Positions 25,017 to 62,876 are shown, numbered from the stretch's first letter. The stretch: DNA of 64,000 nucleotides from a virus (IMGVR_UViG_3300010282_000007:6297-70296), one strand, 5' to 3'. The notes: a model not told the origin generated them from the sequence alone. Program-made: numbers and translations.

Positions 25017-25509
25017 TATATTTGGCCTAATTTGCCCTTTTATTTGCTCCTGAATGCAATTAGGCTGGTTTGATGAATAACACTACCTTTGCAGTAAATA
25101 GGCAACAAAGAGCAAATAATGAGGAATTATATATAACACTCAATTAGCCTATTTATTTGGCCTATATAGGTATTTTTGTTAGATTGTGGGCAAATGTATG
25201 GTTCAAGTATGTTTTGCCGATATTTGCCAAATATAGGCCAAATAAGCGTATCTTTGCATTCAGGTAGATATTTGAAGAACCAGTTAGATACCTTTGCACC
25301 CTATCTTTGCACCCTATTTTCGGCTGGTTGCAAGCTGCAAGCGTATCTTTGTTTGTAGATACCTACAAAAATAGCCTATTTTGCAAACTCAGAAATAGCA
25401 AATTTACATTTAGAAATATAAATATACCACAAAAAACACATTTTTACTATATTTTGCCGAAAAAAAACGTATTTTGGAGAACCATGTACCATATTTATTA
25501 CTACCTTTG
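25017..25509 (+). promoter_or_regulatory. Cluster of seven Bacteroidetes -7 promoter boxes
   Basis: TAnnTTTG at 25017, 25084, 25249, 25289, 25302, 25344, 25502, all facing the small-gene array. Confidence 0.6.
25153..25245. repeat. 15-bp perfect inverted repeat
   Basis: TTATTTGGCCTATAT (25153-25167) and ATATAGGCCAAATAA (25231-25245); core also at 25019-25029. Confidence 0.8.
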
Positions 25510-25574
25510 CAGTGTACATTTAATGTACGTTTTATTTAGTTCTTTGAAATATTTACATTAAACCAAAAAACATC

Positions 25575-46446: not shown

Positions 46447-46509
46447 CCGCGCAGCAACTTCCATTCTTTATGCAAAAGGATGGAAGTACGAATATTAATC
46501 AATCCAATT

Positions 46510-47712
46510 ATGAACGAACAGAAAATATCAAGAAAAGACATTGTGAAAGCCACGTTGCTTTCTTTTAAAGTATCATTCTACGACTTTGAAGAGATTGTTG
46601 GCATATCGCAAACCTTATACAAGTTCCGTCCGCAAATCGGAAACCGCATATCAAAGATACGCGGGCTGAAGGACGAATTTGCATCGGCTCTCGGCGTACC
46701 AAATGTCCGCATTATCGCTCCTATGACCGATGGGAGCGTCGGCATAGAGGTACCAAACAAACAAAGGGAAATTGTTCCAATATCCGACATTTTTGAAACA
46801 CCAGAGTTTCGGGATGCAGAAATGGCATTGCCATGCGCTATCGGAAGAACAGTCACCAACGAAATCTTCATCGCCGACCTCGCAAGGATGCCGCATCTTC
46901 TTGTGGCTGGCGCAACAGGTCAAGGAAAGTCCGTTGGTCTTAACGTCATGCTTATGTCTCTTCTACGGAAGAAAAAGCCAAGCGAATTAAAACTTGTGCT
47001 TATCGACCCGAAGAAAGTTGAATTGTCGGCATACGAAAAGATTGCACGGCCTTACATCACGCAAATGGAAGGTTTGCCGCCTGTCATAACGGAGGCAGAC
47101 CATGCCCAACTCATGCTCGATGGTCTTTGCAGACTTATGGAAAAGCGTTACACCATGCTCAACCAACTTGGCGCAAGGAACATCGAAGAATACAACGCAA
47201 GATGCATAGACAAGATGGAATACTACGTCATCGTCATTGACGAGTTCGGTGACCTTGTTATGCAATCGGGTAGGGAAATGGAGAGGCTTATCTGCCGCCT
47301 TGCACAAAAGGCGAGAGCGGTAGGCATGCACCTAATCATTTCAACCCAACGCCCTGACACGAAAGTTGTCACGGGCAACATCAAGGCAAACTTCCCGACG
47401 AGAATTGCCTTCCGCACCACAACAGGCGTTGACTCTCGCGTCATACTCGACCAAATGGGAGCGGAAAAACTTTTGGGAAACGGCGACATGCTCTATTTTT
47501 CGGGAGCAGAACTTGTCCGTGTGCAATGTGCATACGTCAGCACGAAAGAGGTGTGGGACACTTGCCAGCGGATAGGCGAACGTTATGCCGATGCTCGGCC
47601 CAAAGTTTTGCGTGTCATAAGACCGCAAGCAATAGACAACGATGACTATCATGCCATGTTCCAAGAAATTTTCAAAAGGTGCGGCATTAAAGGTCTTTAC
47701 TCTATGTATTAA
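46510..47712 (+). CDS. ftsK: FtsK/SpoIIIE-family DNA translocase motor (no TM or gamma domain), 400 aa
   Basis: MPHLLVAGATGQGKS, LIDPKKVEL, VIDEFGDL, KARAVGMHLIISTQRP, GAEKLLGNGDML. Confidence 0.92.
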   Translation: MNEQKISRKDIVKATLLSFKVSFYDFEEIVGISQTLYKFRPQIGNRISKIRGLKDEFASALGVPNVRIIAPMTDGSVGIEVPNKQREIVPISDIFETPEFRDAEMALPCAIGRTVTNEIFIADLARMPHLLVAGATGQGKSVGLNVMLMSLLRKKKPSELKLVLIDPKKVELSAYEKIARPYITQMEGLPPVITEADHAQLMLDGLCRLMEKRYTMLNQLGARNIEEYNARCIDKMEYYVIVIDEFGDLVMQSGREMERLICRLAQKARAVGMHLIISTQRPDTKVVTGNIKANFPTRIAFRTTTGVDSRVILDQMGAEKLLGNGDMLYFSGAELVRVQCAYVSTKEVWDTCQRIGERYADARPKVLRVIRPQAIDNDDYHAMFQEIFKRCGIKGLYSMY

Positions 47713-47848
47713 CGCCTCAAGGGGTTTGGCAAGTTGAATTGCCAGACCTTTCCATTCAGCTTCATAATTGAGCAATTTTTGGTGAACGGCGTATGGAATG
47801 CAATAATTCCATACGCTACAATTATGGTAAATTTAAAATGGAATAATT

Positions 47849-48685
47849 ATGAAAATTCTTAGTTTTGAACAAGAGTTCGAGAGAGCCTGCCCCGGAAACA
47901 TTCACCTCATACGCTATATGCGAGAGGCTATCGGGGTGAAGAATGTGGAGTGGGAACACCTCACGACACTCAACCTGTCGAAAGTACGGGAGCATATTTG
48001 CTCCATCGTTAATGGGAACAGCGCATGCACTTACCTTGCCATCATCAAGGCGTTCCTTGCAAAATACGCTGACGAGGGCATTGTGCCATGCAAGAACCCG
48101 AAGAAAGAGTTGAAGGCGAAGAAAATGCCGTCTCAAAACGTCTATCTCACCGAAGAAGAAATAGACCGTATCGAAAAATACGAGCCTAAAACTTTCTGCG
48201 AACAAGACGTTAAGGCAGCATTTCTTATCGAGTGCTACCTTGGTGCAAGACGGTCAGATGTCGAGAACCTGACGGACGAAAACATCGTTGATGGTCGTAT
48301 CGTGTATGTGTCAAAGAAAACGCATACCGAATGCTCCGTGCCTATCCATAAGAAACTTTTGAAATACTTGCAATACAAGCAGGTCGCGAAGAGGGCGCGT
48401 AGCGTTACGAACAGAACCATCCAGCGCATTTGCAAGGAAGTTGGAATAACGCAGGAGGTAAAGTTGTTCTACCACGGCAAATTGGTGAAGAGACCTAAGT
48501 ACGAGTTCGTGGGTTCGCACACCGCACGAAGGTCTTTCTGTTCAAACCTCGCAAAGAGAGGTGTTGACATCTACACCATCGCAGCACTCGCAGGGCACTC
48601 GCAGAATGTGACCATGACGCAGCGTTACGTTGTAACCGACATGGACAACATTTCTGACGAGGCAATGAACTTCTTCAATGGGTAA
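47849..48685 (+). CDS. Tyrosine recombinase (no arm-binding domain), 278 aa
   Basis: Catalytic set GARRSD (R), KKT (K), HTARRSF (HxxR), AGHS (H), TQRY (Y). Confidence 0.92.
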   Translation: MKILSFEQEFERACPGNIHLIRYMREAIGVKNVEWEHLTTLNLSKVREHICSIVNGNSACTYLAIIKAFLAKYADEGIVPCKNPKKELKAKKMPSQNVYLTEEEIDRIEKYEPKTFCEQDVKAAFLIECYLGARRSDVENLTDENIVDGRIVYVSKKTHTECSVPIHKKLLKYLQYKQVAKRARSVTNRTIQRICKEVGITQEVKLFYHGKLVKRPKYEFVGSHTARRSFCSNLAKRGVDIYTIAALAGHSQNVTMTQRYVVTDMDNISDEAMNFFNG

Positions 48686-49701: not shown

Positions 49702-50017
49702 CGCCAGCCTTGATGTTTATTCTCACCACCTTGCCTTTGTTGTCGCGTTCATAGGTGGCGTAAAGAATGCAATCCTCGTAGAGCCATTTCCGCATATTCT
49801 TCTTGTCAAGCAGAAAGCGAACCATTGCCTCTCCAGCAAGTTTCCTGTATTTCTTGTCAAGCGGAAAGTATTCGTAACTTGGCGATGATAGCGGCGCAGT
49901 ACTTTTTGCGTAGCATTTTACGCTTGGGACGATGCTGAAATTAAAGTCGTTCTGCAATTTCAGCAACACCTTCAGCGCACCATCAATCTCCGCGCTCTCA
50001 ATCATTAGCGTGTTCAT
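49679..50017 (-). CDS. Hypothetical protein, 112 aa
   Basis: ORF in the operon. Confidence 0.6.
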   Translation of the reverse strand: MNTLMIESAEIDGALKVLLKLQNDFNFSIVPSVKCYAKSTAPLSSPSYEYFPLDKKYRKLAGEAMVRFLLDKKNMRKWLYEDCILYATYERDNKGKVVRINIKAGDGEKGEG

Positions 50018-50804
50018 CTTTTCGCACGTTTAGTTTGTTGAGGTTAATGGTCATTTGCACCATCCTGCTTATATTCTTCTCTCTCATGTACGTTCCTATG
50101 TTCTTGGCGTGTACGTTTTGCGAGAAAGCGGGAATGACTGCATACAAGAAATTTTTGTTGCTCGATTGCAGCAACTCAAACATGTCGAGAGATTCCGCGC
50201 ATGTGAACTTTGCGGCTGCATTTGATGTTGTTACAAGCCGCAGCCTATTCCCATCCAGCCTTGCAAAGTATTTCGTTTCTTGCTTGCCACGTTTGCTTGT
50301 GCAAGTAATCATCATGATTGGGGTGAGAAGCAGGTTTATCAGGTCAAGGTATATCGGGCATACAGAAAATCTCTCGTTGCAAGTTCTCCGGAGGTTGTCG
50401 CGCGTTCTTTCGGCCTCTTTGTAGTCAAGGCTTACTTCTGCATCCTCAATGTCTTCAGTCAACCATGGACGGCCATCTGTTGTGACCGACATCAGCCTGG
50501 TGTAATATCCGTCAACGGCTCCTTCCTCGTCATGGTGGCAGATTACCCAAAACTCTTTTGTCTCGAATTTTTTCAAGAACGTAGTGTAATCGTCGCAGAA
50601 AACTTTTGCTTGAGGGAAATCCTTTTTCACTCGATTCATTGAAAGTACGATAATTCCATCGTCTTCGCAGTCCATGCTTTCAAGGGAGAATGGCGTGTAT
50701 TCGATGCGCTCTCCCCGGAACCATCGTTTCGGCTTGTACGACTTTACGAAACGGATAACACCATGCTTGTCTTCCGATTCCAAAAAATAGATTATCTTTT
50801 CCAT
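49998..50804 (-). CDS. Hypothetical protein, 268 aa
   Basis: ORF in the operon. Confidence 0.7.
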   Translation of the reverse strand: MEKIIYFLESEDKHGVIRFVKSYKPKRWFRGERIEYTPFSLESMDCEDDGIIVLSMNRVKKDFPQAKVFCDDYTTFLKKFETKEFWVICHHDEEGAVDGYYTRLMSVTTDGRPWLTEDIEDAEVSLDYKEAERTRDNLRRTCNERFSVCPIYLDLINLLLTPIMMITCTSKRGKQETKYFARLDGNRLRLVTTSNAAAKFTCAESLDMFELLQSSNKNFLYAVIPAFSQNVHAKNIGTYMREKNISRMVQMTINLNKLNVRKDEHAND

Positions 50805-50807
50805 ATC

Positions 50808-51581
50808 CTAAAATAACTTTTGTTCCTTTAACCTCGCCTTGACGCGTTTCTCGCAAATTTCGTAGTATTTGTCGGAAAGTTCAATTCCTATCCAATCGCG
50901 CTTTTCGTCTATTGCGGCGATTATTGTACTGCCGCTACCTGCAAACGTGTCAAGCACCAATTCCCCTTCGTTTGAATAAGTCTTTATCAGCCACCTTAAC
51001 AATGGGACTGGCTTTGCCGTACTATGCAGCCAATCTTCACTATTATGGCCTTTGGCAAAAGTGATTATCGTTCCAGGGTACTTGTAATCAGACATAACCA
51101 CTTCCGCTTTTCCAAACTTTCCGTAACAAGTGTTCGTCTGCGCTCCCTCTTGTTTCCCTCGGCTATGATTCCTTTGGTGTGGTCCGGCATAAACCATTTG
51201 AGGGTTGTATGTCGGCAACTTCTTGTAGAACACCAGCACTTGCTCATGCTGTCGCATCGGCATGCGCTTGCAGTTGAGGAAATTTGACTTTCGGACTTTG
51301 TTCCACACAATATCGTATTTATACCAACTTGGGTTGCTCATTATCAACTTGGCGGCGAACAGACCTTGGCCGAAAAGGAGTATCGCACCATTTGGCTTGA
51401 CAATGCGCTTGTATTGTTTCCACAACGCTTTCAAGTCAACCTCCTTGTCCCATTGTGCATCGGGATTGCTCTTGTTAAGCGTATTGTACGGAGGGTCTGC
51501 AAGCACAAGGTCAACGCTATGGTCAGGTATCTCCCTCATGATTTCAAGGCAATCTCCTTTGTATAGTTTGTTTCTTTCCAT
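50808..51581 (-). CDS. N4C/N6A DNA methyltransferase, beta class (MTase 5), 257 aa
   Basis: DPPY before HSTAKP and LDTFAGSGS. Confidence 0.92.
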   Translation of the reverse strand: MERNKLYKGDCLEIMREIPDHSVDLVLADPPYNTLNKSNPDAQWDKEVDLKALWKQYKRIVKPNGAILLFGQGLFAAKLIMSNPSWYKYDIVWNKVRKSNFLNCKRMPMRQHEQVLVFYKKLPTYNPQMVYAGPHQRNHSRGKQEGAQTNTCYGKFGKAEVVMSDYKYPGTIITFAKGHNSEDWLHSTAKPVPLLRWLIKTYSNEGELVLDTFAGSGSTIIAAIDEKRDWIGIELSDKYYEICEKRVKARLKEQKLF

Positions 51582-51591
51582 TATTTAAAAC

Positions 51592-52155
51592 TTAAAATAA
51601 TGTCAGTTGTCGTTTCTCTTCCTTTATTCGCTTGCATGCTTTTTCGTAGTATTCTTTGTTGAGTTCAAATGACCATTCAAGCCCGCAAGCCTTTTTCTTT
51701 CTTCCGTGTAAGCACGAAGAAATGTTATTCAAAGAAACACCAAAAGCATTTGCTGCTTGAGTAATACTATCAAATGACTCTACTAATATTCCATCTTTAA
51801 AGGCATAAACTTTCTTTCGGTGTTTCTTTGCGATTTTTTCTCTATTTCCATTGTAATTAAGATTGTAAGATGGGCTACACCATTCTAAATTCCAAACTGC
51901 ATTGTTTTGTTTATCTTCATCTTTATGATTTATTAGGTGTTTACCTTCTTCTTTTGGAATAAATGCCAACGCTACAAGCCTATGCACCCTTAACTGTTTA
52001 CCATGAAGAGAAACAAAAAAATATCCTTTTCTGTCAACACAAGGAGTCAATATTTTCTCTATGCCAGTCTTATTGAAAGATAGGCTCTTGATATTACCAT
52101 AGTTTGATACCATATACCCACTATGACCGTCTATTACTTTCCATTCTTCTTTCAT
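51592..52155 (-). CDS. NUMOD4-HNH-NUMOD1 homing endonuclease, 187 aa
   Basis: EEWKVIDG..YMVSNYG, RVHRLVALAF, NHKDEDKQNNAVWNLEW, ESFDSITQAA. AT-rich. Its C-terminus resembles an MTase tail. Confidence 0.9.
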   Translation of the reverse strand: MKEEWKVIDGHSGYMVSNYGNIKSLSFNKTGIEKILTPCVDRKGYFFVSLHGKQLRVHRLVALAFIPKEEGKHLINHKDEDKQNNAVWNLEWCSPSYNLNYNGNREKIAKKHRKKVYAFKDGILVESFDSITQAANAFGVSLNNISSCLHGRKKKACGLEWSFELNKEYYEKACKRIKEEKRQLTLF

Positions 52156-52918
52156 TTGAAATCAAGTGTTAGTTGAGATTTTTCAATTTCTATTCTTTTA
52201 AGTGCTTTCTTATAATACTCTTCATTAAGTTCAAAACCAACGAAATGACGCTTTTCTTTCAAGCAAGCGATAGCAGTTGTTCCTGACCCAATACAGTTGT
52301 CAAGTACGACATTACCTTTGTTTGTGAATGTCCTGACAAGATAACGCACCAAGTCAAGAGGTTTTTGAGTTGGATGAATGACATTCCCATCATCACGCCC
52401 TTTCGTAAAACACACAATGGACGTTGGAAATTTTTCGTCTGCGATTACAGGTTGTGTCTGCGCATATTCGTTGTAGCATCTATTTGCCCCCCCTTACCAT
52501 GGTTTCGATAATGTGGTTCGCTTGGCATCATTTGTGGGTTATATGTTGGTAAAGACTTGTAAAACACGCAGATGTCTTCGTGTCTTCTTAGCGGCATGCG
52601 CCTTGCATTAAGAAATCCCGTAGGCCACAATTTATCCCAAATGATGTTGTATCTCCACCAACTTCTATTGCTTTGCATAAGGTCTGCGGTGAACATTCCT
52701 TGGGAGAATAGGATAATGGCCGCGTTATCCTTAACGACACGCTTATACTGCTCCCAAAGTGGCTCGAAAGGTATTACTACATCCCATTTTGCATGAATGT
52801 TGCCTTTCCCAAGAACCCCATACGGCAAATCGCAAATGATAGCGTCTATGCTACCATCCGGGATTTTCCGCATACCAACAAGACAATCCTCATTGTAGAT
52901 GGTGTCGAGTTCAATCAT
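52152..52918 (-). pseudogene. Beta-class amino-MTase (MTase 4) frameshifted at a G7 tract, possibly phase-OFF
   Basis: DLPY half (52445-52918) and HPTQKP/LDNCIGSG half join if G7 (52487-52493) becomes G8: ...KGGANRCYNEYAQTQPVIADEKFPTSIV. Confidence 0.85.
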
Positions 52919-53627
52919 TAAACAAATCTCCTTGCCTATAAGTGTTTTTTATACGTTTCGCGCAAACATCATGAAACTTTTCGTCAATCTCAAATCCAAC
53001 GTAGTTGCGCCCGGTGTTTATACAGGCGATAGCGGTTGTTCCACTACCCATAAATGGGTCGAGAACAGTTTCTCCTTTGTTCGTGCTATTCTTGATAAGG
53101 AACTGGAATAAAGGTACTGGTTTTGCGGAATCGTGCAAGTTTGCTCCGCTTTTGTCTTTTGGTTTGACATTTGGAATGCTGATTACATCCGAAGAGCCAC
53201 ATTCGTTGATTGGACGCGCTTTGCCCTTTCTAAGAAATAGGATGTACTCAAATTGGTTCATGTAGAAAGCACCCATTATCTTTTGCCCCTTTTCCCAAAT
53301 CAGACATTTCACGAAATGGAATTTACTTTCATCTATCACTTTCAGGAAATGTGTCAGATTGACATGATTGCACATGATGTAACAATGCGTTCCGTCCTTC
53401 AGCACGCGATAGAACTCAGGCAAGTAGTCTTCAATGTTGATGTCGTTATGTTTGAATATTTTGCCTTTTAGCGAAAGTTCGGTGCGCATCATCCCACCGC
53501 TATTGCCAGCGTTTCCGCGAGAGGTTATCTTGTATGGTGGGTCGGTCACTATGCAGTCGATGCTTTCATCGGGAATGTCCTTCATTCCAACCAGACAGTC
53601 GGTGTTGAGTATTTTATTTAGTTCCAT
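52911..53627 (-). CDS. N4C/N6A DNA methyltransferase, beta class (MTase 3), 238 aa
   Basis: DPPY, HDSAKP, LDPFMGSG. Confidence 0.92.
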   Translation of the reverse strand: MELNKILNTDCLVGMKDIPDESIDCIVTDPPYKITSRGNAGNSGGMMRTELSLKGKIFKHNDINIEDYLPEFYRVLKDGTHCYIMCNHVNLTHFLKVIDESKFHFVKCLIWEKGQKIMGAFYMNQFEYILFLRKGKARPINECGSSDVISIPNVKPKDKSGANLHDSAKPVPLFQFLIKNSTNKGETVLDPFMGSGTTAIACINTGRNYVGFEIDEKFHDVCAKRIKNTYRQGDLFND

Positions 53628-53633
53628 TGTTTT

Positions 53634-54413
53634 TCAAAATAATTTCGGTTGTTGCAGTTCCTCCTTTACACGCTTGCAAGCAATGTCATAATACTTCTTC
53701 TCCTTTTCAATACAGATAAAATGTCGCTTCTCCCTTATGCAGGCCACGGCGAGGCTTCCACTTCCACAGCAGTTATCTAAAATAGTGTCTTGCTTATCCG
53801 TGTATGTCAGCACAAGGTAGCGAAGCAAGTCAACGGGTTTCTGCGTTGGGTGATACCCCCCCCTGTCACGGTTGAAACGCAGAATGTTTGTCGGGTATCT
53901 TTCGCCTTCGTTTACGGTAACGTGGCCGCATACGCTTGGAGAGCGACTCATCACGGCATACGCTGCATTCCTCTTGTTGCCGTTCTTGCATACATACGGC
54001 TTGCCCTTCGTCTTCTGTGGGTTGTACTTCATTTTTATGCCATTTGGAGAGTACGAAATTCCGCCGTAACTGAACACCGCAATGTCCTCCGTCTTTTTAA
54101 GAGGGCAGTAGTTCGCATTGACAAAGTTCGTCCCCATTTCCTTTTCCCAAATCCAGTTGTATTTCCACATCTTTATGTTTGAGGAAATAAGGTAGGTTGT
54201 GAAAGGCTGTTGGCAGAATAGTACGATTGCGCCGTTTGGCTTGATTATACGGGTGTAAGCGTCCCATAGCGGCTCGAATGGAATGGCGCAGTCCCATTTC
54301 ATTCCGGTAGTGTTGTAGGGAAGGTCGCAGATGATGGCATCAATGCTTTCGTCAGGTATCTCCCGCATCAACTCCAAGCAATCGCCGTGGTGTATCTTGT
54401 CTAACTCAATCAT
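53634..54413 (-). CDS. N4C/N6A DNA methyltransferase, beta class (MTase 2), 259 aa, in-frame G8 tract
   Basis: DLPY, HPTQKP, LDNCCGSG; AGG GGG GGG at 53856-53863. Confidence 0.92.
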   Translation of the reverse strand: MIELDKIHHGDCLELMREIPDESIDAIICDLPYNTTGMKWDCAIPFEPLWDAYTRIIKPNGAIVLFCQQPFTTYLISSNIKMWKYNWIWEKEMGTNFVNANYCPLKKTEDIAVFSYGGISYSPNGIKMKYNPQKTKGKPYVCKNGNKRNAAYAVMSRSPSVCGHVTVNEGERYPTNILRFNRDRGGYHPTQKPVDLLRYLVLTYTDKQDTILDNCCGSGSLAVACIREKRHFICIEKEKKYYDIACKRVKEELQQPKLF

Positions 54414-54414
54414 T

Positions 54415-55110
54415 TCAGAATAACTTTAATTGTTTGGCAGTTGTTCCGTCTTTCATACCGACAATTCCGAAACACTCTTTCACGAAACGTTCGCAACCTT
54501 GGTCGTAATATTCTTTGTCTATCTCGCAGCCGACAAAATCGAACCCCAACTTGTAGGCAGCTATTCGGCTGCTGCCGCTTCCAAGCATAGGGTCAAAGAT
54601 GTTGTCGCCGGACTTTGCGAAATTGTTAAGCAAGTATGCGTATAGTTCAACAGGCTTTTGAGTCGGATGTATCTTACCACCTCGCCTGTTGTCATACTTG
54701 AAAAGTTTCGCTGGCTTGTCAAAACTCGTCCAAGCATACTCGCATTGTGAAAAGTTCGGCCATGGTTGCACCTTGTCCCAACATACAAAACAACGTGTCG
54801 GCGGCAAGTCAAAATAGTTTCCTCCCCAAATGATTACATTCTCGCAAACTCTGAAAAGTTCGTCAAAGAACTCCCTGGGAGGTGTCTTGTCCCATTGAGA
54901 AAACTTGCCTGCAGATTGGTTGAGTATTCTTCCTCTCAACTTCCCCGCGCCTTTGTATGAAGATTTGCGCTTGTCTATTTGTCGTGTGCCTATTTGATAC
55001 GGAGGGTCTGCGATGCCAAGCGAAAATTCCTTGTCTTTGCAACCTCTCATAAACTCAAGGCAGTCGATGTTGTAAACTTGGCTTGAAGGTTTAATCTTCT
55101 TCTCCATCAA
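54415..55110 (-). CDS. N4C/N6A DNA methyltransferase, beta class (MTase 1), 231 aa
   Basis: DPPY, HPTQKP, FDPMLGSGS. Confidence 0.92.
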   Translation of the reverse strand: MMEKKIKPSSQVYNIDCLEFMRGCKDKEFSLGIADPPYQIGTRQIDKRKSSYKGAGKLRGRILNQSAGKFSQWDKTPPREFFDELFRVCENVIIWGGNYFDLPPTRCFVCWDKVQPWPNFSQCEYAWTSFDKPAKLFKYDNRRGGKIHPTQKPVELYAYLLNNFAKSGDNIFDPMLGSGSSRIAAYKLGFDFVGCEIDKEYYDQGCERFVKECFGIVGMKDGTTAKQLKLF

Positions 55111-55551
55111 TTACTTGATAATTAAACGCTTCCAACTTTCCGACGCATTCTCAAAATGAAGACCATTCCGGGGAGTGCCACTATTGATTGCATTCCAAAG
55201 CGATTTATGGGACAACCCCAAATGGTCGCAGCACTCTCTAATGGAACTATACACCTTTCCAGTCTCAACGCACAAGACAGGACGCTCCCAATACTTTTTC
55301 GGTCTTGTCCTTACCGATGCCGCCAAATCAGCAGGAAGTTCTATCACATCCTTGCAACGCTGCTCTGACTGCGTGATTTCACTTTCAACATGCTTGTCGG
55401 GATATTGCTCGAAAGAACGCATGTCAAACACGCAAATCTCGCAATCCTTGTAAAACGCCCTCACCGTCGCAAGGTCATCAAGTGTTTCGGCAAAGTACAA
55501 GTTCGCATTCTTGCCATTCACGAAAACAGACACAAAATAGTTATTCTTCAT
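55111..55551 (-). CDS. NUMOD1/IENR1-like DNA-binding protein, 146 aa
   Basis: RPVLCVETGKVYSSIRECCDHLG. Confidence 0.6.
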   Translation of the reverse strand: MKNNYFVSVFVNGKNANLYFAETLDDLATVRAFYKDCEICVFDMRSFEQYPDKHVESEITQSEQRCKDVIELPADLAASVRTRPKKYWERPVLCVETGKVYSSIRECCDHLGLSHKSLWNAINSGTPRNGLHFENASESWKRLIIK

Positions 55552-55777
55552 CGAAAGTCAATGTTAATGTTAGTTTCAATGGCTCGTCCTCCCATTTCAT
55601 AGGAGGGAGGTTTAAGCCGAAAGTCTCCATCCAAGCGACGGTGGAGGAAATAAAGCCGTACATCCTTCCCTCCCAAACGCGCCATTCCTCATTGCGAACA
55701 GGACGGCCAAGAAACACGCAGCATTGGCCGCTACCATTGGCCGCATAGTATAGTTCGGTGACAACTCCCATACTCAC
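55541..55777 (-). CDS. Hypothetical protein, 78 aa
   Basis: ORF with overlaps on both sides. Confidence 0.6.
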   Translation of the reverse strand: MSMGVVTELYYAANGSGQCCVFLGRPVRNEEWRVWEGRMYGFISSTVAWMETFGLNLPPMKWEDEPLKLTLTLTFDEE

Positions 55778-56223
55778 TTCCCTGTCGAGCCGTAGCCATT
55801 CTTGCCGCGATTTGTGTCGGACAATTCGTCAACCTCCACAAACACGATGCCTTCGGTAAATCCAATCTTCAACTGGCCGATGCGGTCGCCAACCTCGTAT
55901 TTGGGCATATCGGGGAAAACATGGTAGAATACTCCAGACACCTCGCCCCTATATCCTTCATCAATAGTGCTAATGCAATTAGCGAGTACCATTCCCGTCT
56001 TCCATATTGACGAACGTGGCCTTATGTCAATGCTCAAGTCAACTTCCATTTCCTCACAAAGTTCATCCCTTTGTATCTCAAAGGCAAGTCCAATCCCATA
56101 CTTCCATACGTTCGGCGCAATTTCCTCGCACGATGTCGCAACAACATCGTAGCAAAAATCATCGTTGTGCGCTTTCTTTGGAATGACTGCATCGGGATGC
56201 AGTTTCTTTATCTTTACTATCAT
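55774..56223 (-). CDS. dut: Trimeric dUTPase, 149 aa
   Basis: YDV, RPRSS, TIDEGYRGE, RIGQL, RGKNGYGSTG motifs. Confidence 0.95.
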   Translation of the reverse strand: MIVKIKKLHPDAVIPKKAHNDDFCYDVVATSCEEIAPNVWKYGIGLAFEIQRDELCEEMEVDLSIDIRPRSSIWKTGMVLANCISTIDEGYRGEVSGVFYHVFPDMPKYEVGDRIGQLKIGFTEGIVFVEVDELSDTNRGKNGYGSTGK

Positions 56224-56317
56224 TTCTTTTTTTTGTTAATCGTTAATGATGATAAGAAAACCCCATGCCGACACATTGACATCGGCAAGGGGCAACCAAA
56301 ACAAATAATGAAAAATA

Positions 56318-56797
56318 CTATTCTTCTTTTTCAAGATGTTTGCCAAACTCCAAAACGTCGCAAATCTTCGTCTTTACGATGTCTGCAATTTCGTAGTCTT
56401 CGGTGGTGAACTGATAAACCGCATCGATGATTGCCTTTCGCGCCTCCTCAACGCTTGCAGCCTGGACGAGGTGGTAGTGCGATTTCACCTTCGTCTTCAT
56501 TCCGCTGCGTGTTTCAGTAATCTCCGGGATGCAGACCTTGACCTTGAAGAAACTTTCGGCATCCGTATTCTCGTTGAAACACACCGTGCCGTACTTCGGC
56601 CTTGACATCGCCGTTACCTTGACGGGGCGGTTGGCATACTCCATTTCCTTTGTAATTCTCGTTTCTCCGTCAATGAACGTCGCAGCCTCAACCACGTACT
56701 TCTCTTTTTTCTCTTTCAACACTCCGTTCTCGTTGATTTCGTCAAAGGCTATGGTTACTTCAAACCAAAAACCGCTTCTGTTTCTAAGATGTTCCAT
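56318..56797 (-). CDS. DUF4494-like protein, 159 aa
   Basis: WFEVTI...KEKYVVEAATFIDGETRI and FFKVKV...HLVQAASVEEA duplicated-domain pattern typical of Bacteroidetes. Confidence 0.65.
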   Translation of the reverse strand: MEHLRNRSGFWFEVTIAFDEINENGVLKEKKEKYVVEAATFIDGETRITKEMEYANRPVKVTAMSRPKYGTVCFNENTDAESFFKVKVCIPEITETRSGMKTKVKSHYHLVQAASVEEARKAIIDAVYQFTTEDYEIADIVKTKICDVLEFGKHLEKEE

Positions 56798-56835
56798 TTC
56801 TTTTTAATGATTAAGTAAAACTATTGTAGTTGTTG

Positions 56836-57387
56836 TTAAAACAGCGTAAGTTGAACTGGTTTCCCCTTTTCAATATCCATGTCCTTCTCCACATATAGTT
56901 TTCTGAACATGTGGTACATCGGGGAAACGACAATACTGTTGCCTGCAAGGCGATAGTGTGAACTGTTTGAAAGCGGACTTCCAAGCAGCGTGTTTATGTC
57001 GTTTTCGCCAACATTCATCAGTCTGTAACATTCCCTTGGGGTCAACTTCCTTATCCGCATGGCAACAGGCGTGATGTCCTCGTAGAACTGAATAAGTGCT
57101 TTCCTCTGCCAGTCGAACGGCATTTGCATTTGGTCTTTCACCTTGTCGAGCAGTTCCTTCAGCCTTCCGCTTGGCTTCCATTCGTCGAAAATGGCACAAA
57201 GTCCGCTGACAATCTTGTCGGGTATCTCTGCACGTTCTTCTTTGCTATTTCGCAACTTGTTAAGTTCCGGGAAGACTATCTTGAACACTTTCAGGCATTC
57301 GTCTTGGGTGTGTTCCTTCCCATAAAGTTTTCTGCAAGCACGATAAACCACACGCACTTGCTTATGAAAATCTCTTTTATGTTTCAT
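56836..57387 (-). CDS. C5-cytosine MTase C-terminal part (helical insert plus motifs IX-X), 183 aa
   Basis: RIRKLTPRECYRLM (IX), YRLAGNSIVV (X); ends QLTLF. Confidence 0.9.
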   Translation of the reverse strand: MKHKRDFHKQVRVVYRACRKLYGKEHTQDECLKVFKIVFPELNKLRNSKEERAEIPDKIVSGLCAIFDEWKPSGRLKELLDKVKDQMQMPFDWQRKALIQFYEDITPVAMRIRKLTPRECYRLMNVGENDINTLLGSPLSNSSHYRLAGNSIVVSPMYHMFRKLYVEKDMDIEKGKPVQLTLF

Positions 57388-57529
57388 ATATCTCGATTAT
57401 TGTTGTCATCGTTGCACCATCGGTTCTTAGCAATGTTGCTCCGCCAAACTTGTAGCAACCTGCAAGAATTGTCTTTGAAACTTTTAATTTTTCAGAAGTG
57501 TCGTAGTTGTGGAATTTAATGCGTTTCAT
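57377..57529 (-). CDS. TRD-like mini-ORF M14, 50 aa
   Basis: MKRIKFHNYDTSEKLKVSKTILAGCYKFGGATLLRTDGATMTTIIEIYET. Confidence 0.7.
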   Translation of the reverse strand: MKRIKFHNYDTSEKLKVSKTILAGCYKFGGATLLRTDGATMTTIIEIYET

Positions 57530-57710
57530 AGACTTCTGCGCATAGATTGTCTTTGGTTGCTGCGGTTGTCACAGTACTCATTACCGGACCGACAAGCACA
57601 CCGTATTTCCCTTTGGAGTAAGTCGCTCCTACATCGCCGTATAAGTGCCGTCTAAGCCGTTCTTCTGCGGTTCTCGCCCTTGCCACGCATAGAGCGTTAA
57701 TACGTTTCAT
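57516..57710 (-). CDS. TRD-like mini-ORF M13, 64 aa
   Basis: MKRINALCVARART...PVMSTVTTAATKDNLCAEVYETH. Confidence 0.7.
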   Translation of the reverse strand: MKRINALCVARARTAEERLRRHLYGDVGATYSKGKYGVLVGPVMSTVTTAATKDNLCAEVYETH

Positions 57711-57894
57711 AACAATCAAGGTAAAGCAAATGTGCCATATTTGTTGCTTGAATTGCAGGCGAAACAAAGCGTGTCACTCTTGTTCGCCGTGTGTTGCTAT
57801 TTGGAAATGAATTGTCAAGAATTGTTCCTACCTCCCACAACTGACATCTTCCGTTTGGAAGCCGTATGAGAAAACCTTCCCTCTTATGTTTCAT
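57697..57894 (-). CDS. TRD-like mini-ORF M12, 65 aa
   Basis: ...DNSFPNSNTRRTRVTRFVSPAIQATNMAHLLYLDCYETY; resembles the SYPNSKTRRGRV unit seen in C5-MTase variable regions. Confidence 0.75.
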   Translation of the reverse strand: MKHKREGFLIRLPNGRCQLWEVGTILDNSFPNSNTRRTRVTRFVSPAIQATNMAHLLYLDCYETY

Positions 57895-58039
57895 AAACAC
57901 AAGAAATGTATGAAGAGTTATATCCTGAAACCTTGCTGCAACCACCAAGCGTAGCAGAAATGCCGTCTGTTGAATACAATCGGCCAGCCATCGAACGATG
58001 CTCCCAACCAAATACAAAGCCTATCCTCTTAATCTTCAT
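57884..58039 (-). CDS. TRD-like mini-ORF M11, 51 aa
   Basis: MKIKRIGFVFGWEHRSMAGRLYSTDGISATLGGCSKVSGYNSSYISCVYET. Confidence 0.75.
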   Translation of the reverse strand: MKIKRIGFVFGWEHRSMAGRLYSTDGISATLGGCSKVSGYNSSYISCVYET

Positions 58040-58181
58040 AGACAATCCTTACTATTGGGCGCATAGAGCCGCTATGCGCAGAAGATTCCGTCAAGCAGTT
58101 GCATACTATCATTGGATGGTAATTGCGAATATTCCCCTTTTCGTCCCTTGACCATCCATAAAGCAACAACTTACGTTTCAT
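58029..58181 (-). CDS. TRD-like mini-ORF M10, 50 aa
   Basis: MKRKLLLYGWSRDEKGNIRNYHPMIVCNCLTESSAHSGSMRPIVRIVYED. Confidence 0.7.
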   Translation of the reverse strand: MKRKLLLYGWSRDEKGNIRNYHPMIVCNCLTESSAHSGSMRPIVRIVYED

Positions 58182-58326
58182 ACGCCACCTTTATTCTTGG
58201 CTCAACGCCCGAATGGCAACCAACACTAATGCACGGCGACACTCCCTTTGTGTCAATAACCCATCCGTTTTGCTTGCTACACCAAACATAGCCGACAATT
58301 AATATTTGCGTTGATTTATTTCTCAT
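58171..58326 (-). CDS. TRD-like mini-ORF M9, 51 aa
   Basis: MRNKSTQILIVGYVWCSKQNGWVIDTKGVSPCISVGCHSGVEPRIKVAYET. Confidence 0.75.
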   Translation of the reverse strand: MRNKSTQILIVGYVWCSKQNGWVIDTKGVSPCISVGCHSGVEPRIKVAYET

Positions 58327-58481
58327 AGATGTGAATTGCTCCTGTGGTGCCCCAATCATTAGTGTACTGGAAATTGATGCGGCCTGTCTTGTAATAGTTG
58401 GCTTTGATTGTCCTGCAAGTGCCATCGTTTTTGGTGTTGCAACCAATAAGCCGTATGGGGGGGGGTAGATTTAACGCTCAT
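58316..58481 (-). CDS. TRD-like mini-ORF M8, out of frame at C9 (in frame with C8 or C11)
   Basis: MSVKST-(C9)-IRLIGCNTKNDGTCRTIKANYYKTGRINFQYTNDWGTTGAIHIYEK; 166 nt. Confidence 0.7.
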
Positions 58482-58620
58482 AGATTACTCCAATGAATTG
58501 GTCGGTAGTAAAGCCGCTACCCGTGAACGTATGAATGACATTTGCTATATCCTTTGGATGATAGTTCAATATCTCACCCTTCTTGTTGTCACGGGTGTAG
58601 CCGTAAAGGATCCGTCTCAT
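58471..58620 (-). CDS. TRD-like mini-ORF M7, 49 aa
   Basis: MRRILYGYTRDNKKGEILNYHPKDIANVIHTFTGSGFTTDQFIGVIYER. Confidence 0.7.
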   Translation of the reverse strand: MRRILYGYTRDNKKGEILNYHPKDIANVIHTFTGSGFTTDQFIGVIYER

Positions 58621-58747
58621 ATATCTCAATTACAAGGATGGGGTCTTTGAAATCACGCGCCCTTAACGTAGGAGAATATAACGATGAAATTCTAAACTCG
58701 CCGTATGTGCTACGTGGGTTTGGCAAAACCATTTTCTCATGTCTCAT
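58589..58747 (-). CDS. TRD-like mini-ORF M6, 52 aa
   Basis: MRHEKMVLPNPRSTYGEFRISSLYSPTLRARDFKDPILVIEIYETDPLRLHP. Confidence 0.75.
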   Translation of the reverse strand: MRHEKMVLPNPRSTYGEFRISSLYSPTLRARDFKDPILVIEIYETDPLRLHP

Positions 58748-58910
58748 AAACTTGTGTGACAAATTTGTTGCCATCGTCGTATCTTGCCGTTATCGTGATG
58801 TGCAAGCCGATGTGCCATTGCTGGTTGTAACAGTCAAGGCATATACCGCTAACGAAAGGCACACCGCTTTCAATGAGAGACCTTACCCTCTCACCTCCTT
58901 TAAGTTTCAT
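58737..58910 (-). CDS. TRD-like mini-ORF M5, 57 aa
   Basis: MKLKGGERVRSLIESGVPFVSGICLDCYNQQWHIGLHITITARYDDGNKFVTQVYET. Confidence 0.75.
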   Translation of the reverse strand: MKLKGGERVRSLIESGVPFVSGICLDCYNQQWHIGLHITITARYDDGNKFVTQVYET

Positions 58911-59082
58911 ACGCTTTCGTTACAAAATACATGCAATTTGCGTCTATCCTCGCTTTGATTGTACCTGAAACAGAAATATTGTAGATTTGATTGTACGTGT
59001 CGAGCCATACGCCGCTCTTAAATGGAATGCCGCTTTCAATAAGTGAAGCGAGGCGTTTGCCTCCTGTTGGTTTATTCTTCAT
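58900..59082 (-). CDS. TRD-like mini-ORF M4, 60 aa
   Basis: MKNKPTGGKRLASLIESGIPFKSGVWLDTYNQIYNISVSGTIKARIDANCMYFVTKAYET. Confidence 0.75.
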   Translation of the reverse strand: MKNKPTGGKRLASLIESGIPFKSGVWLDTYNQIYNISVSGTIKARIDANCMYFVTKAYET

Positions 59083-59239
59083 ACAACAATGCTATTTTAG
59101 GCGAGTTGCAACTTCCAACACCTCTTCCACGAATGCCCTGCCCTGACCTCAATGTTGGCGATAGGCCATCTGGTGAGAAAACGTCACCATTTTGGCCATC
59201 GCTTGGGAATACATTGCCCAAACGGATAATTCTACACAT
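59072..59239 (-). CDS. TRD-like mini-ORF M3, 55 aa
   Basis: MCRIIRLGNVFPSDGQNGDVFSPDGLSPTLRSGQGIRGRGVGSCNSPKIALLYEE; TAATG overlap start. Confidence 0.75.
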   Translation of the reverse strand: MCRIIRLGNVFPSDGQNGDVFSPDGLSPTLRSGQGIRGRGVGSCNSPKIALLYEE

Positions 59240-59408
59240 TATGTTTCATAGACAACCCCGATACCCATCTTCGGATAATGCGCTACGCTTATCAAATTTG
59301 CCGCTCCGATTACCTCGTAAACGGCGGTGATTGTCGGAGCAAGGCCGTCTTTTGTAACTGGCAGTCCTATAAGTCGTTGAGGGGGGGGGGCAGCTTACGT
59401 TGTTTCAT
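59239..59408 (-). CDS. TRD-like mini-ORF M2, out of frame at C10 (in frame with C8 or C11)
   Basis: MKQRKL-(C10)-QRLIGLPVTKDGLAPTITAVYEVIGAANLISVAHYPKMGIGVVYET; 170 nt. Confidence 0.7.
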
Positions 59409-59418
59409 AAATATAGCA

Positions 59419-59559
59419 CTATGCGCTTTTAGGGTAATGGCGAAGAGTGATGTAGTCCCTTATCGCAGCATCTTCGTATCGCGTGTTCAAAGTGCAAGCA
59501 ATACCACCCGAACAAACATTCTGCGGAACAATCCTACTGGGCAACAAAGAAGTTCTCAA
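59419..59559 (-). CDS. TRD-like mini-ORF M1, 46 aa (TTG start; TAG four codons before the expected YET)
   Basis: MRTSLLPSRIVPQNVCSGGIACTLNTRYEDAAIRDYITLRHYPKSA*CYIYETT*. Confidence 0.55.
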   Translation of the reverse strand: MRTSLLPSRIVPQNVCSGGIACTLNTRYEDAAIRDYITLRHYPKSA

Positions 59560-60307
59560 AATCCTCTTCGTCTTCTTCGTCAAAATCATTCTCTGAAGAT
59601 GCAGACCTCCCATCTTCCTCAATGCTCTTTTCGCAAAACCTTGCAAGCATTTCGTCGGACAAGAAATACTTTTCGTCAACTTCCTCTTCCAAAACATCAT
59701 TCAAACAAAGTTCCAACGGCATTTTCTTTGGGAAGAAATATCTTGGGTTTTGTTCGTCTTCAGTTATGAGAATGGAAATCATGTATATCCGTTCTCTATT
59801 TTGAGGAACGTTGAAATCAGAGGCATTCAGTACCTGGGCAAAATTTACATATCCGAAACCCTCAAGCCGCCTTTGCCAGGCGTTAAAACCTTTGATGAAC
59901 TTTTGCTGAACAAGTCCTTTTACATTCTCAAAGAAGACGTACTTAGGACGCTTTAACTCTATGGCTCTCGAACACTCCCATAAGAGCGAAGAACGCGTTC
60001 CGCTACCCTCTTCTCCACCACGCTGGAGGCCAGCATTGCTGAAGTCCTGGCAGGGCGAACTCATTGTAAAAAAGTCAAAATCAGGAACTTTGCCCCAATC
60101 AATCTTGCTGATGTCACCATAGTTTTCAACGTCACCATGTAACGCTTTGTAAGCGGTAATCGCACTTGGGTCAATCTCGCTGAAGCCAATCAATTTGTAG
60201 TCAAATTCAGGAAAGTCGCGTTTCAGCCTCTCCAAAGCAAGGCTTTGACTGCCATAGCCAGCAAAAGCCTCAAATACCCTTAATGGATTGTTTTTGTCGT
60301 ATTTCAT
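59534..60307 (-). CDS. C5-cytosine MTase catalytic N-terminal part (motifs I-VIII), 257 aa
   Basis: FAGYG (I), SSPCQDFS (IV), ENVKGL (VI), VPQNRERIY (VIII). Ends in an acidic tail with no TRD or motifs IX-X. Confidence 0.92.
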   Translation of the reverse strand: MKYDKNNPLRVFEAFAGYGSQSLALERLKRDFPEFDYKLIGFSEIDPSAITAYKALHGDVENYGDISKIDWGKVPDFDFFTMSSPCQDFSNAGLQRGGEEGSGTRSSLLWECSRAIELKRPKYVFFENVKGLVQQKFIKGFNAWQRRLEGFGYVNFAQVLNASDFNVPQNRERIYMISILITEDEQNPRYFFPKKMPLELCLNDVLEEEVDEKYFLSDEMLARFCEKSIEEDGRSASSENDFDEEDEEDFENFFVAQ

Positions 60308-60324
60308 ATATGTCTTGGTTGTTG

Positions 60325-60759
60325 TTAAATCTTTAACTTTTGGAATGCCTCGTTGTTTACAAACACATTCCATTCGTCTTCTGATGTTTTCGGAATCCAC
60401 TCGGCAGTAATGGTTTTTCCTTTAGCGTATTTCATGCAGATATTGAACATTTTGGCATAGTCTTCGGGAACTTCCCACCCTGCTATCCATCCGGCAACAG
60501 CACTGTTGTTCGTCCAAATAACGCATACTGCATCATCATCGTCGATAAATGACAATGCCCATCCAATAGCGTAAATCTCCATTTGGAACTGCCCTTTGTA
60601 CCGCAAAATCGGAATATTCGTTTCCTTTGTTGGTATCACATCAACAAACTTGGCTGACTTTGTGGCCAGCAACTTTCCATTGCACAAAACCGCAAAAGCG
60701 AGGGATGCGGAATTGTCGTAATTGTTATGGCAACCTTTTATGTAAATTGAGTATTTCAT
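60325..60759 (-). CDS. RNase H-like protein, 144 aa
   Basis: RNase HI-like order: first strand IYIKG, MEIYAIGWAL, IWTNNSAV, WIPK..N..V; some catalytic Asp positions differ. Confidence 0.55.
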   Translation of the reverse strand: MKYSIYIKGCHNNYDNSASLAFAVLCNGKLLATKSAKFVDVIPTKETNIPILRYKGQFQMEIYAIGWALSFIDDDDAVCVIWTNNSAVAGWIAGWEVPEDYAKMFNICMKYAKGKTITAEWIPKTSEDEWNVFVNNEAFQKLKI

Positions 60760-60767
60760 CTTTGCTC

Positions 60768-62864
60768 TTAAAATGGTAGTTCACTATCTGGGAGAGTTTC
60801 ACCAAATGGCATATCGTCAGCAGAAGATGTTGATGCTTGCGTTTCAGCAAACATCACTTGTTGAACGGCATTATCTCCGCGCCAGCCATAGGAAACAACC
60901 TCATTTTCGGTGTTCTTAAAACGGCGGCTCTCAACTTCGTAATACATACCACAGAAAAAGTCCTGCGTTCCCATCATCCTATCCTTGGCAACCTCTATCA
61001 TATTGCCGTATTCCTGCGCATTTTCAGTAGGACTGAAACGCAATGTCGGGAAAACATCTTTCACTGTCCTCCTAAAATCATTGTTGACGCGATGAACAAT
61101 GAAGATATAGTCGGCTGCATCCATTATTGCAGACGTTCCGCTGATGTCGTATTTCCGTATGAACGATGTTGTCTTTCTTGGGTGTGCTACAAGAATTACT
61201 ATCGCCTTGTTCTTTTTCTTGAACTCTACAAGTTGATTAACAAGGTCTTTTTGTTTCTTGTTGTTGTCACCATCAAACACGTCGATGTCAAGAGAAAAAA
61301 GGTTGTCAAGAATGAATATCCTAACTCCCATGGAAAGCAACTCATTCATATCATTGAATATCTGTTCCCATTTGTTAGAGTATTCGTTATTGTAGAGAAA
61401 GAATTTTCCATCAAGCCAATCATCTATCCTTGTTGATATGTCGTTTGGAACGTAGTAATAATGTCCATTGTTTGCTTGCCGTAAAAAATCCTTTCCAGCA
61501 GCGACCATTTGCATCCACGTCTTTAGCACATCCGGCCTCAACTCTCCGCTCCACAATGCTGCTTTTGCCCCCTGTTGGACTGCGTTAAGAATGAGCGAGT
61601 TCAGCCACGACGATTTCCCTGAAGCATTTGAGCCGCTGACAACGACAAGTGAACTATAAAACAAACCTTTTGTTGCCTTATCCAATGACATAAAGCCTGT
61701 CTTTATATGCTCGATGTCGTTGATATTCACTTTTTGAATATCCTTCATCGAAAACCATTTCTTCCCAAGTTCGGGAGTTTCAGGCTTTATTGTCGGTTCT
61801 ACGTGTTGCGGCCTTTGTTGTACTTTCCTTTGTTGTTGATATGGTTGTTGTTGTTGTTGTTGGTCGTATGCGTGTGGGTCAAACTTTAACCTTACTTCCC
61901 GCCAATCGTGACAAGAGCAGGACTGATGGAAGCACTTGTAAGCTATTGCGCCGTTCGGCATTTCAAAGATTGCGGCATCTGGTGCTTTGTGACCGCTGTC
62001 AAAGATGCATTCGGTAAGCACAAACTTTGTTCCTCCACCTGAAAGTGGAACTTCTTTCGCTATACTTATGCCATGCTCATTAATGAACCTCCGCAGGTTA
62101 AACTCTTCGTGAGTGCCGTTTGAATAATTGTTGTATCTCCTTACAGGCTGTTCAGCGGACAACTTGTACCTATCGTTGAAAGCATCGAGAAAGTCTTTCC
62201 GTATTCTCGTGATTTTTTCGGGTACATAAAGTATCTTCGCTTGCCGATGCGGCCTTTCCTCCGTACTTCTGCCTTTGCGCCCGAAAGAGCCAGGAAGACG
62301 AATTATCCTATTGGCATCGAATAGAACATTGTCTATCTTGACATTGCCGTCTGTAAAGTTGATGCTAAGTGTTTCAAGGAAAGTCTTGACTGTCGTTTCC
62401 GCTTCGGGTGTGTTCTCCATATCTATCGGGATGAAGATATGGTAGCCGCTTGACGAATCGCACACTACTGGCTCACTAAAGCCATTATCCCTAAGAAATC
62501 GGAACACGTTGCCAGCCTTTTTATATGCAAGTGCCTTTTCATCGTTGGTTGAACTTACACCGCTTGGGCGTTCGCAGTCAACATCTATCGGGAGCCACCA
62601 TCTATGCTCTATGTCCTGCTTGCTGGTCGCAGTGCCCTTGACTTGCTTAAACGAGCCGAACTGTTCTCTGCTTGCGCAGGCACGCTTCACTTCATTGACG
62701 GAGAAATAAATGTTGAAATTGTCATAAGGCTGCAACTTCTTAATGGCTTGTTCCACATCGTAAAAATAGCCGCTCCAAGTCCTATCTCCAAGAAGACGTA
62801 TTTCAAACAGTTCTCCCTCTCGCTTGAAGACCTTATGCCATTTTCTTATCTCGTCAATGTTCAT
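60768..62864 (-). CDS. Primase-helicase fusion (PrimPol-like N-terminus, Zn domain, DnaB-like SF4 helicase), 698 aa
   Basis: IDVDCE, DSSSGYH, RIIRLPG; CFHQSC; GSNASGKSS, ILDNL, LVAHPRK, DISGTSAIMDAAD. Confidence 0.88.
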   Translation of the reverse strand: MNIDEIRKWHKVFKREGELFEIRLLGDRTWSGYFYDVEQAIKKLQPYDNFNIYFSVNEVKRACASREQFGSFKQVKGTATSKQDIEHRWWLPIDVDCERPSGVSSTNDEKALAYKKAGNVFRFLRDNGFSEPVVCDSSSGYHIFIPIDMENTPEAETTVKTFLETLSINFTDGNVKIDNVLFDANRIIRLPGSFGRKGRSTEERPHRQAKILYVPEKITRIRKDFLDAFNDRYKLSAEQPVRRYNNYSNGTHEEFNLRRFINEHGISIAKEVPLSGGGTKFVLTECIFDSGHKAPDAAIFEMPNGAIAYKCFHQSCSCHDWREVRLKFDPHAYDQQQQQQPYQQQRKVQQRPQHVEPTIKPETPELGKKWFSMKDIQKVNINDIEHIKTGFMSLDKATKGLFYSSLVVVSGSNASGKSSWLNSLILNAVQQGAKAALWSGELRPDVLKTWMQMVAAGKDFLRQANNGHYYYVPNDISTRIDDWLDGKFFLYNNEYSNKWEQIFNDMNELLSMGVRIFILDNLFSLDIDVFDGDNNKKQKDLVNQLVEFKKKNKAIVILVAHPRKTTSFIRKYDISGTSAIMDAADYIFIVHRVNNDFRRTVKDVFPTLRFSPTENAQEYGNMIEVAKDRMMGTQDFFCGMYYEVESRRFKNTENEVVSYGWRGDNAVQQVMFAETQASTSSADDMPFGETLPDSELPF

Positions 62865-62876
62865 GATTGTTTGTCG

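Follow-up and report, generated by a model that had tools for sequence, protein, structure and literature searches.

The window analyzed here, a stretch of 64,000 nucleotides corresponding to bases 6297-70296 of the linear 70,296-bp IMG/VR virus record IMGVR_UViG_3300010282_000007 (CheckV completeness 67%), harbors a cluster of DNA methyltransferase genes that is located on the minus strand within the replication module of a gut phage and whose products end in peptides of the type Q-[L/P]-x-L-F. We are moderately confident that these C-terminal tails are best read as clamp-binding motifs added to DNA-modifying enzymes, and, as judged from sequence comparisons, the phage probably methylates its own DNA while copying it. 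Relatives of the phage genes stem from gut metagenomes and from records assigned to Bacteroidales or Muribaculaceae.

Seven Tails in the Methyltransferase Cluster

Five enzymes of the cluster (MT1 to MT5) belong to the N6/N4 DNA methyltransferase family PF01555. MT1 (50808-51581, 257 amino acids, Pfam E-value 8e-35) ends in EQKLF (50811-50825), MT3 (52911-53627, 238 amino acids, Pfam E-value 3e-36) in QGDLFND (52914-52934), MT4 (53634-54413, 259 amino acids, assigned by Pfam) in QPKLF (53637-53651) and MT5 (54415-55110, 231 amino acids, assigned by Pfam and alignment) in QLKLF (54418-54432), which follows a linker of about 12 residues. These four proteins reach PF01555 bit scores of 66-126 at a cut-off of 26.7. 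MT2 (52152-52918) is distributed over two open reading frames (ORFs; 52445-52918 and 52152-52415), the C-terminal part scoring 74.7 bits and the N-terminal part 25.5 bits, slightly under the cut-off, and terminates in QLTLDFK (52155-52175). Motif IV (DPPY or DLPY) and motif I (GSG) are recognizable in the alignment of the PF01555 methyltransferases and occur in beta-class order. The two remaining tails, both QLTLF, are found on an HNH homing endonuclease (51592-52155, tail at 51595-51609) with Pfam matches to NUMOD4, HNH_3 and NUMOD1, and on the C-terminal half of a C5 methyltransferase (56836-57387, PF00145 positions 269-322, motifs IX and X), where a linker precedes the tail (56839-56853). 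The catalytic N-terminal half of the C5 enzyme (59534-60400, PF00145 positions 2-214, E-value 1e-50, motifs I-VIII) lacks a clamp-type tail but is part of a split enzyme together with the tailed C-terminal half. All these genes are encoded on the minus strand.

When a loose pattern (Q..LF, Q.LF or Q..L.F, at most two residues from the end) was applied to the 444 ORFs of at least 50 amino acids in the 70,296-bp record, seven were retrieved, all of them the tails of the methyltransferase cluster. The distribution of tails in the phage record is real and highly non-random. An origin as a DNA repeat is ruled out, as the codons for the tail vary from copy to copy, and conservation thus resides at the level of the protein.

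Established beta-clamp clients comprise Pol II (QLGLF), Pol IV (QLVLGL), UmuC (QLNLF), Hda, MutS, MutL and some transposases. Just as the phage tails, their motifs are QL[S/D]LF pentapeptides or QLxLxL/F hexapeptides, usually situated at a protein terminus; unlike these clients, the phage carriers are mobile-element DNA methyltransferases, and the likeness is one of peptide sequence. QLTLF (present on two proteins), QLKLF and QPKLF are pentapeptides of the canonical kind, and QLTLDFK of MT2 is of the hexapeptide type. Judged by QL[S/D]LF, the broader Qxx[L/M/I]F or the hexapeptide QLxLx[L/F], the agreement with the bacterial clamp-binding consensus that had been claimed from the sequence alone holds for these five.

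Conservation and Position of the Tail in Related Enzymes

Two sets of relatives were compared, namely the 120 nearest relatives of MT4 (PF01555) and 120 full-length C5 methyltransferases (PF00145) related to the C-terminal half. Among the MT4 relatives, 93 of 120 end in LF and 67 carry a strict Q[LP]x[LMI]F end; the alignment consensus terminates in QLTLF. The corresponding numbers for the C5 enzymes are 89 and 81 of 120, the strict tails being mostly QLSLF or QLTLF. By position, Q is present in 77, L or P in 86, L in 96 and F in 95 of the 120 PF01555 proteins (positions -5, -4, -2 and -1), and the successive residues of the motif in the PF00145 proteins are Q in 89, L in 90, S or T in 87, L in 90 and F in 90 cases. 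LF-type ends also characterize the nearest relatives of the other paralogs: the closest relative of MT1 (65% identity) ends in REPKLFYK and others in QPTLF or QPSLF, relatives of MT3 end in NPQALF and QKTLFDLI, and those of MT5 in QQTLF, ELSLFE and QGTLFDE. Taken together with the position counts, this means that the motif is kept among orthologs while its flanks vary. A protein identical to MT4 is also encoded on a 99.8-kb contig.

The motif X helix and the tail of the C5 relatives are separated by 10-15 residues of variable linker. Tail-less members terminate directly past this helix, which identifies the tail as an add-on. An AlphaFold2 (AF2) model of MT4 with a predicted local distance difference test score (pLDDT) of 85.4 places the last helix at residues 239-254, followed by five residues in coil conformation at lower confidence, and solved relatives terminate shortly past the final helix. 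On the basis of the coil in the MT4 model and the variable linker in the C5 relatives, the motif resides in an exposed terminal segment that is not part of the catalytic fold, and the two methyltransferase families place it after different structural elements.

Occurrence of the Tail in Viruses, Chromosomes and Host Proteins

Most of the 240 relatives compared retain the tail, and chromosomal homologs almost always lack it. The 1,791 ORFs of 80 viral loci that surround PF01555 relatives included 17 strict tails, every one of them on a methyltransferase, and 21 strict tails were located on methyltransferases among the 1,194 ORFs of the 80 viral loci with C5 relatives. In 80 prokaryote loci, sampled with one genome per species (958 ORFs), only two of about 85 homologs carried the tail. 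Both are encoded on contigs of metagenome-assembled genomes assigned to Bacteroidales or Prevotellaceae, and one of the two has an identical counterpart among the IMG/VR viral contigs. None of the Bacteroides and Phocaeicola chromosomal homologs in the prokaryote set is tailed.

The sole ORF not encoding a methyltransferase that showed a QLSLF-type end, among about 3,900 ORFs in these 240 related loci, specifies a DNA-modification protein of the Mom family ending in QLSLFDD (L046:7339-8163) and belongs to the PF01555 set. In addition, a viral contig of the C5 set encodes a protein with a weak Dam-like match that ends in QLNLFV (L185:1793-2344). With these two carriers the tail is not confined to two methyltransferase families. 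It therefore marks DNA-modifying enzymes of phages. As for the hosts, Pol IV is a classical clamp client, and in Bacteroides and Phocaeicola it ends in QLRLEF or QLSFEF followed by further residues, i.e., in motifs of the same class as QLTLDF of MT2.

More distant viral PF01555 enzymes (loci L020, L027, L029, L031, L034, L042, L048, L052, L056, L070, L076 and L080) feature other conserved ends, namely FEPQTLFGNEM, HEPL[FL]HLG and TGPF.[IL][YF]GNIG, the latter two with residues following. These may be docking peptides for different partners or for different clamps.

A Divergent DnaN-Like Protein Encoded by the Phage

The phage also encodes a potential partner. A plus-strand gene at 43740-44924 specifies a protein of 394 amino acids that is, on the basis of profile and model comparisons, a divergent DnaN homolog with domains II and III. 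The Pfam models for DnaN PF00712 and PF02768 had failed to reveal a clamp in the record, and this protein and 23 of its relatives match no Pfam family at all, including PF00712, PF02767 and PF02768. The negative Pfam result is misleading, as the clamp-like gene is recovered only with profiles and structure. Its profile matches DnaN-like proteins of related phages with an hhalign probability of 97.6% (E-value 3.7e-12) and PDB beta clamps with an E-value of 4e-5. The AF2 model (pLDDT 89.8) retrieved exclusively DnaN among the top 50 Foldseek matches, and its superposition with the Escherichia coli clamp by VIA yielded a Z-score of 19.3 and a root-mean-square deviation of 2.9 Å over 232 residues, with model residues 112-371 corresponding to clamp residues 118-366, i.e., domains II and III. 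In beta clamps, the cleft that accommodates peptides lies in these two domains. About 70 residues at the N-terminus are helical, and the match to domain I is partial. The sequences YPNWRSVLP and, at the C-terminus, LLIMP are retained. At least 66 relatives are present in a protein library clustered at 50%. The suspicion voiced earlier that the phage possesses a clamp-like protein of its own has thus been borne out by profile and structure comparisons alike, and the modeled domains make this protein a candidate docking partner of the tails.

Five related phages with complete genomes, all of them with tailed methyltransferases, were inspected. A DnaN-like gene was present in three of them and no clamp gene was detectable in the other two, which indicates that a phage clamp is common but not required. 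The alpha subunit of Pol III (PF07733) was not found in any of the five, and no polymerase was found in the 70,296-bp record of our phage, which is incomplete to an extent that a polymerase may lie outside. The host clamp appears as the simplest partner for the tails.

Proposed Function of the Tails and Alternative Explanations

Primer ends are the sites at which clamps are loaded, and the clamps then remain on newly made DNA. According to the model that we propose, each methyltransferase would be anchored by its tail in the hydrophobic cleft of a sliding clamp of the DnaN type, which may be the host beta clamp, the phage DnaN-like protein or both. As clamps stay behind on the new DNA, docking would concentrate the enzymes on fresh, as yet unmethylated phage DNA, and all sites could be modified before host restriction enzymes attack or packaging takes place. 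We infer the binding of the tails to a clamp, the identity of the partner and the effect on methylation or restriction from sequence.

Several lines of evidence argue for this proposal. The tails occur only on methyltransferase-linked ORFs of the phage, they are conserved and nearly absent from chromosomal homologs. In their commonest forms they represent the exact consensus, they occupy a terminal, exposed position and host Pol IV carries a motif of the same class; QLSLF is reportedly the textbook clamp-binding consensus, a status said to go back to Dalrymple in 2001. Furthermore, the MT2 gene was apparently provided with a tail again when its 3' end was replaced (see below), the phage encodes a DnaN homolog, and the genes lie in the replication module.

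A number of observations weigh against it. It had been stated from the sequence alone that every methyltransferase ends in a QLxLF-like motif, and all seven C-termini are indeed as described; the generalization is overstated, however, since two of the tails are degenerate and that of the HNH protein is a leftover. EQKLF lacks the leading Q and QGDLFND has two residues after the motif, such that these two fit the clamp motif at the last two or three positions only. Proline at position 2, as in QPKLF, is unusual for a clamp-binding pentapeptide. The five PF01555 genes are paralogs and their tails are, therefore, not independent events. In MT1 to MT4 hardly any residues separate the motif from the final helix, and its access to the clamp cleft may be restricted as a result. 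With regard to the phage DnaN-like protein, ATDGHRLA of E. coli is replaced by ASNGAILA, whereby the pocket-lining residues H175 and R176 are lost, and helices take the place of most of domain I. The protein may neither form a ring nor bind the tail peptides. The two complete related phages that combine tailed methyltransferases with the lack of a detectable clamp gene belong here as well.

Which partner the tails would bind is a matter on which the same evidence can be read differently. One might propose that they bind mainly the phage DnaN-like protein, and that this protein serves as a platform for modification enzymes instead of a polymerase processivity factor. The presence of domains II and III, the lack of a polymerase in the record and of Pol III alpha in the related phages, and the DnaN-like genes in three of the five relatives are in line with such an arrangement. 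We nevertheless consider it rather unlikely, given that two complete relatives manage without a detectable clamp, that the tails match the host-type consensus including host Pol IV, that the pocket residues are not conserved and that a polymerase may have escaped notice in a record covering 67% of the genome. A partner other than a clamp is less probable still: the tail could mediate docking to a different hub protein of phage or host, mark the enzyme for a protease (degron) or signal packaging, and the LF-type ends of distant viral methyltransferases in other contexts (QTLFGNEM, PLFHLG and GPFxIYGNIG) show that hydrophobic C-terminal peptides are a broader habit of these enzymes. Yet QLSLF and QLTLF, the commonest forms, are identical to the clamp consensus at its four fixed positions, and all carriers act on DNA. 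We know of no other system with this exact terminal peptide, which likewise counts against such a partner.

The tail might also be an inherited element of the fold with no partner at all, e.g., the counterpart of the motif III edge strand in beta-class enzymes. The C-terminus of beta-class amino-methyltransferases follows motifs I and II, a terminal strand at this place would be plausible, and the PF01555 genes being paralogs would fit common inheritance. We regard this explanation as very improbable indeed. The last five residues of MT4 are predicted as coil outside the sheet, the same peptide is attached behind motif X of C5 enzymes, a class with another motif order, as well as to a Mom-family protein, and most chromosomal homologs and solved relatives end without a tail. 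The motif III edge-strand version was rejected on account of the MT4 model and the C5 and Mom carriers. We therefore return to clamp binding as the preferred explanation for the tails.

Comparison With Known Systems

A search of a literature collection that was itself incomplete yielded no publication in which clamp-binding motifs were connected with methyltransferases of bacteria or phages. A precedent for tethering a methyltransferase to a sliding clamp exists in eukaryotes, where the maintenance enzyme DNMT1 binds PCNA via a PIP box and methylates new DNA (PMC9690074). Clamp, motif and enzyme lineage differ from those of the phage enzymes, and the purpose of DNMT1 binding is epigenetic inheritance whereas in the phage it would presumably be protection from restriction. 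A report on phage Mu describes a clamp-binding motif in the late activator MuC, by which clamps on replicating phage DNA are exploited (PMC12867686); MuC is a transcription factor, unlike the DNA-modifying methyltransferases studied here. Methylation tied to replication has been described for the plasmid enzymes M.EcoGIX and M.BceJIII, for which the sliding clamp was suggested as an intermediary to Pol I (PMC7736820). These enzymes are specific for single strands and have Pol I as a partner, and, in contrast to the phage enzymes, no clamp-binding motif was described for them.

Should the tails bind a clamp, bacterial viruses would have arrived at the strategy of eukaryotic DNMT1 and PCNA, i.e., the coupling of methylation to the replication fork. 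This would help to explain how every restriction site is methylated in time in phages that replicate fast, and a large class of DNA-modifying enzymes would join the list of clamp clients. A terminal QLxLF would then also be a simple sequence marker for distinguishing methyltransferases of mobile elements from chromosomal ones.

The HNH Cassette and the Interrupted MT2 Gene

At its C-terminus, the HNH protein has 28 residues that consist of methyltransferase motif II, a helix and the tail, as evident from protein and DNA alignments to methyltransferase 3' ends. The C-terminus is, therefore, a relic of a methyltransferase gene and the HNH tail does not constitute an independent case. Related phage contigs from two other studies track MT2 down to position 52253, within codons for RHF(I/V)GFELN, and diverge below it. 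This fits the entry of a homing-endonuclease cassette (51592-52253) into MT2 at the GFELN codons. Such an event would have left the original 3' end of MT2 fused to the nuclease gene and supplied a replacement 3' end, and the replacement is again tailed (QLTLDFK).

MT2 is a single gene. When read in three frames, it contains one frame break, located in a 7-base homopolymer (a C run at 52487-52493 of the plus strand). Contigs from three other runs have one extra base at this position, which brings the gene into frame.

A related viral contig (L035:8351-10273) encodes a PF01555 methyltransferase of 640 amino acids with an internal LAGLIDADG domain of the intein or homing-endonuclease type; this protein still ends in QQKLF.

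A Split C5 Methyltransferase With an Array of Mini-ORFs

Between the two C5 halves, about 13 ORFs of 40-93 amino acids form an array on the minus strand (57377-59700), each of which matches one target-recognition domain of in-frame multispecific C5 enzymes. Multispecific phage C5 enzymes of the SPR and phi3T type combine several target-recognition domains with one catalytic core, and M.AquI is a C5 enzyme that works as two polypeptides. Enzymes of the SPR/phi3T type are single polypeptides, in contrast to the separate, overlapping ORFs found here between the genes for the N- and C-terminal halves. Motifs I-X are not united on one polypeptide, the N-terminal half covering model positions 2-214 and the C-terminal half 269-322, and C5 activity would require assembly of the separate pieces.

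Consecutive mini-ORFs overlap by exactly 11 or 14 nucleotides at a conserved junction, where the upstream ORF ends with Y-E-T-stop and the ATG of the next lies inside TAT-GAA. All 14 junctions use TAT as the tyrosine codon. Programmed frameshifting as a means of joining the mini-ORFs is unlikely; the junction is devoid of a slippery site and the conserved ATG is present. The same layout with 15-17 mini-ORFs occurs in two divergent complete phages (L167 and L168), whose C5 C-terminal halves end in QLNLF and QLTLF, respectively, and this shared layout argues for a conserved design and against decay. A search for related loci with the N-terminal half as the sole query found nothing.

Related contigs from runs X2 and X4 lack whole target-recognition modules within window positions 57700-59270, the skips amounting to 145-197 nucleotides. 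Their breakpoints lie in the junction repeats, with 5-13 nucleotides of shared sequence, from which it follows that the array evolves by gain and loss of cassettes. Homopolymers of 9 (58457-58465) and 10 bases (59381-59390; plus-strand positions) put two mini-ORFs out of the frame of their start codons, and in another run one base fewer at 58457-58465 restores the frame. The breaks at these two tracts and at 52487-52493 in MT2 would reflect either phase variation or homopolymer errors.

The sequence arrangement suggests that the split C5 protein may be an enzyme with free, exchangeable specificity subunits. Going further, one could envisage a clamp-centered platform, in which a DnaN-like landing pad without a polymerase would gather on nascent DNA the five amino-methyltransferases and a modular C5 enzyme consisting of the N-terminal half, the clamp-tagged C-terminal half and about 13 free target-recognition subunits, some of them switched by homopolymers, and which would act as a replication-coupled, combinatorial and phase-variable anti-restriction machine. 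We put this forward as speculation and consider it unlikely in its entirety.

Gene Neighborhood

The methyltransferase cluster adjoins genes for a primase/helicase (60768-62864) with a match to DnaB_C and a replication initiator (62877-63812), both on the minus strand. Profile matches in this part of the replication module (60768-63812) comprise, besides DnaB_C, phrog_239 (E-value 2e-35) and, weakly, phrog_270. The module also encodes a DUF4494 protein and a protein of 149 amino acids (55774-56223) that we take, from its sequence alone, to be a candidate dUTPase. An Atlas search with the neighboring protein of 268 amino acids (49998-50804) gave no result.

Adjoining plus-strand genes for an ATPase of the FtsK/SpoIIIE type (410 amino acids) and a tyrosine recombinase (278 amino acids) are present at 46480-48685 of the window, with the early genes on one side and the methyltransferase cluster on the other. 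At 24000-26000, the G+C content falls to 0.30-0.34, compared to 0.42-0.50 elsewhere, and this stretch coincides with the switch point from a minus-strand structural block to a plus-strand early block.

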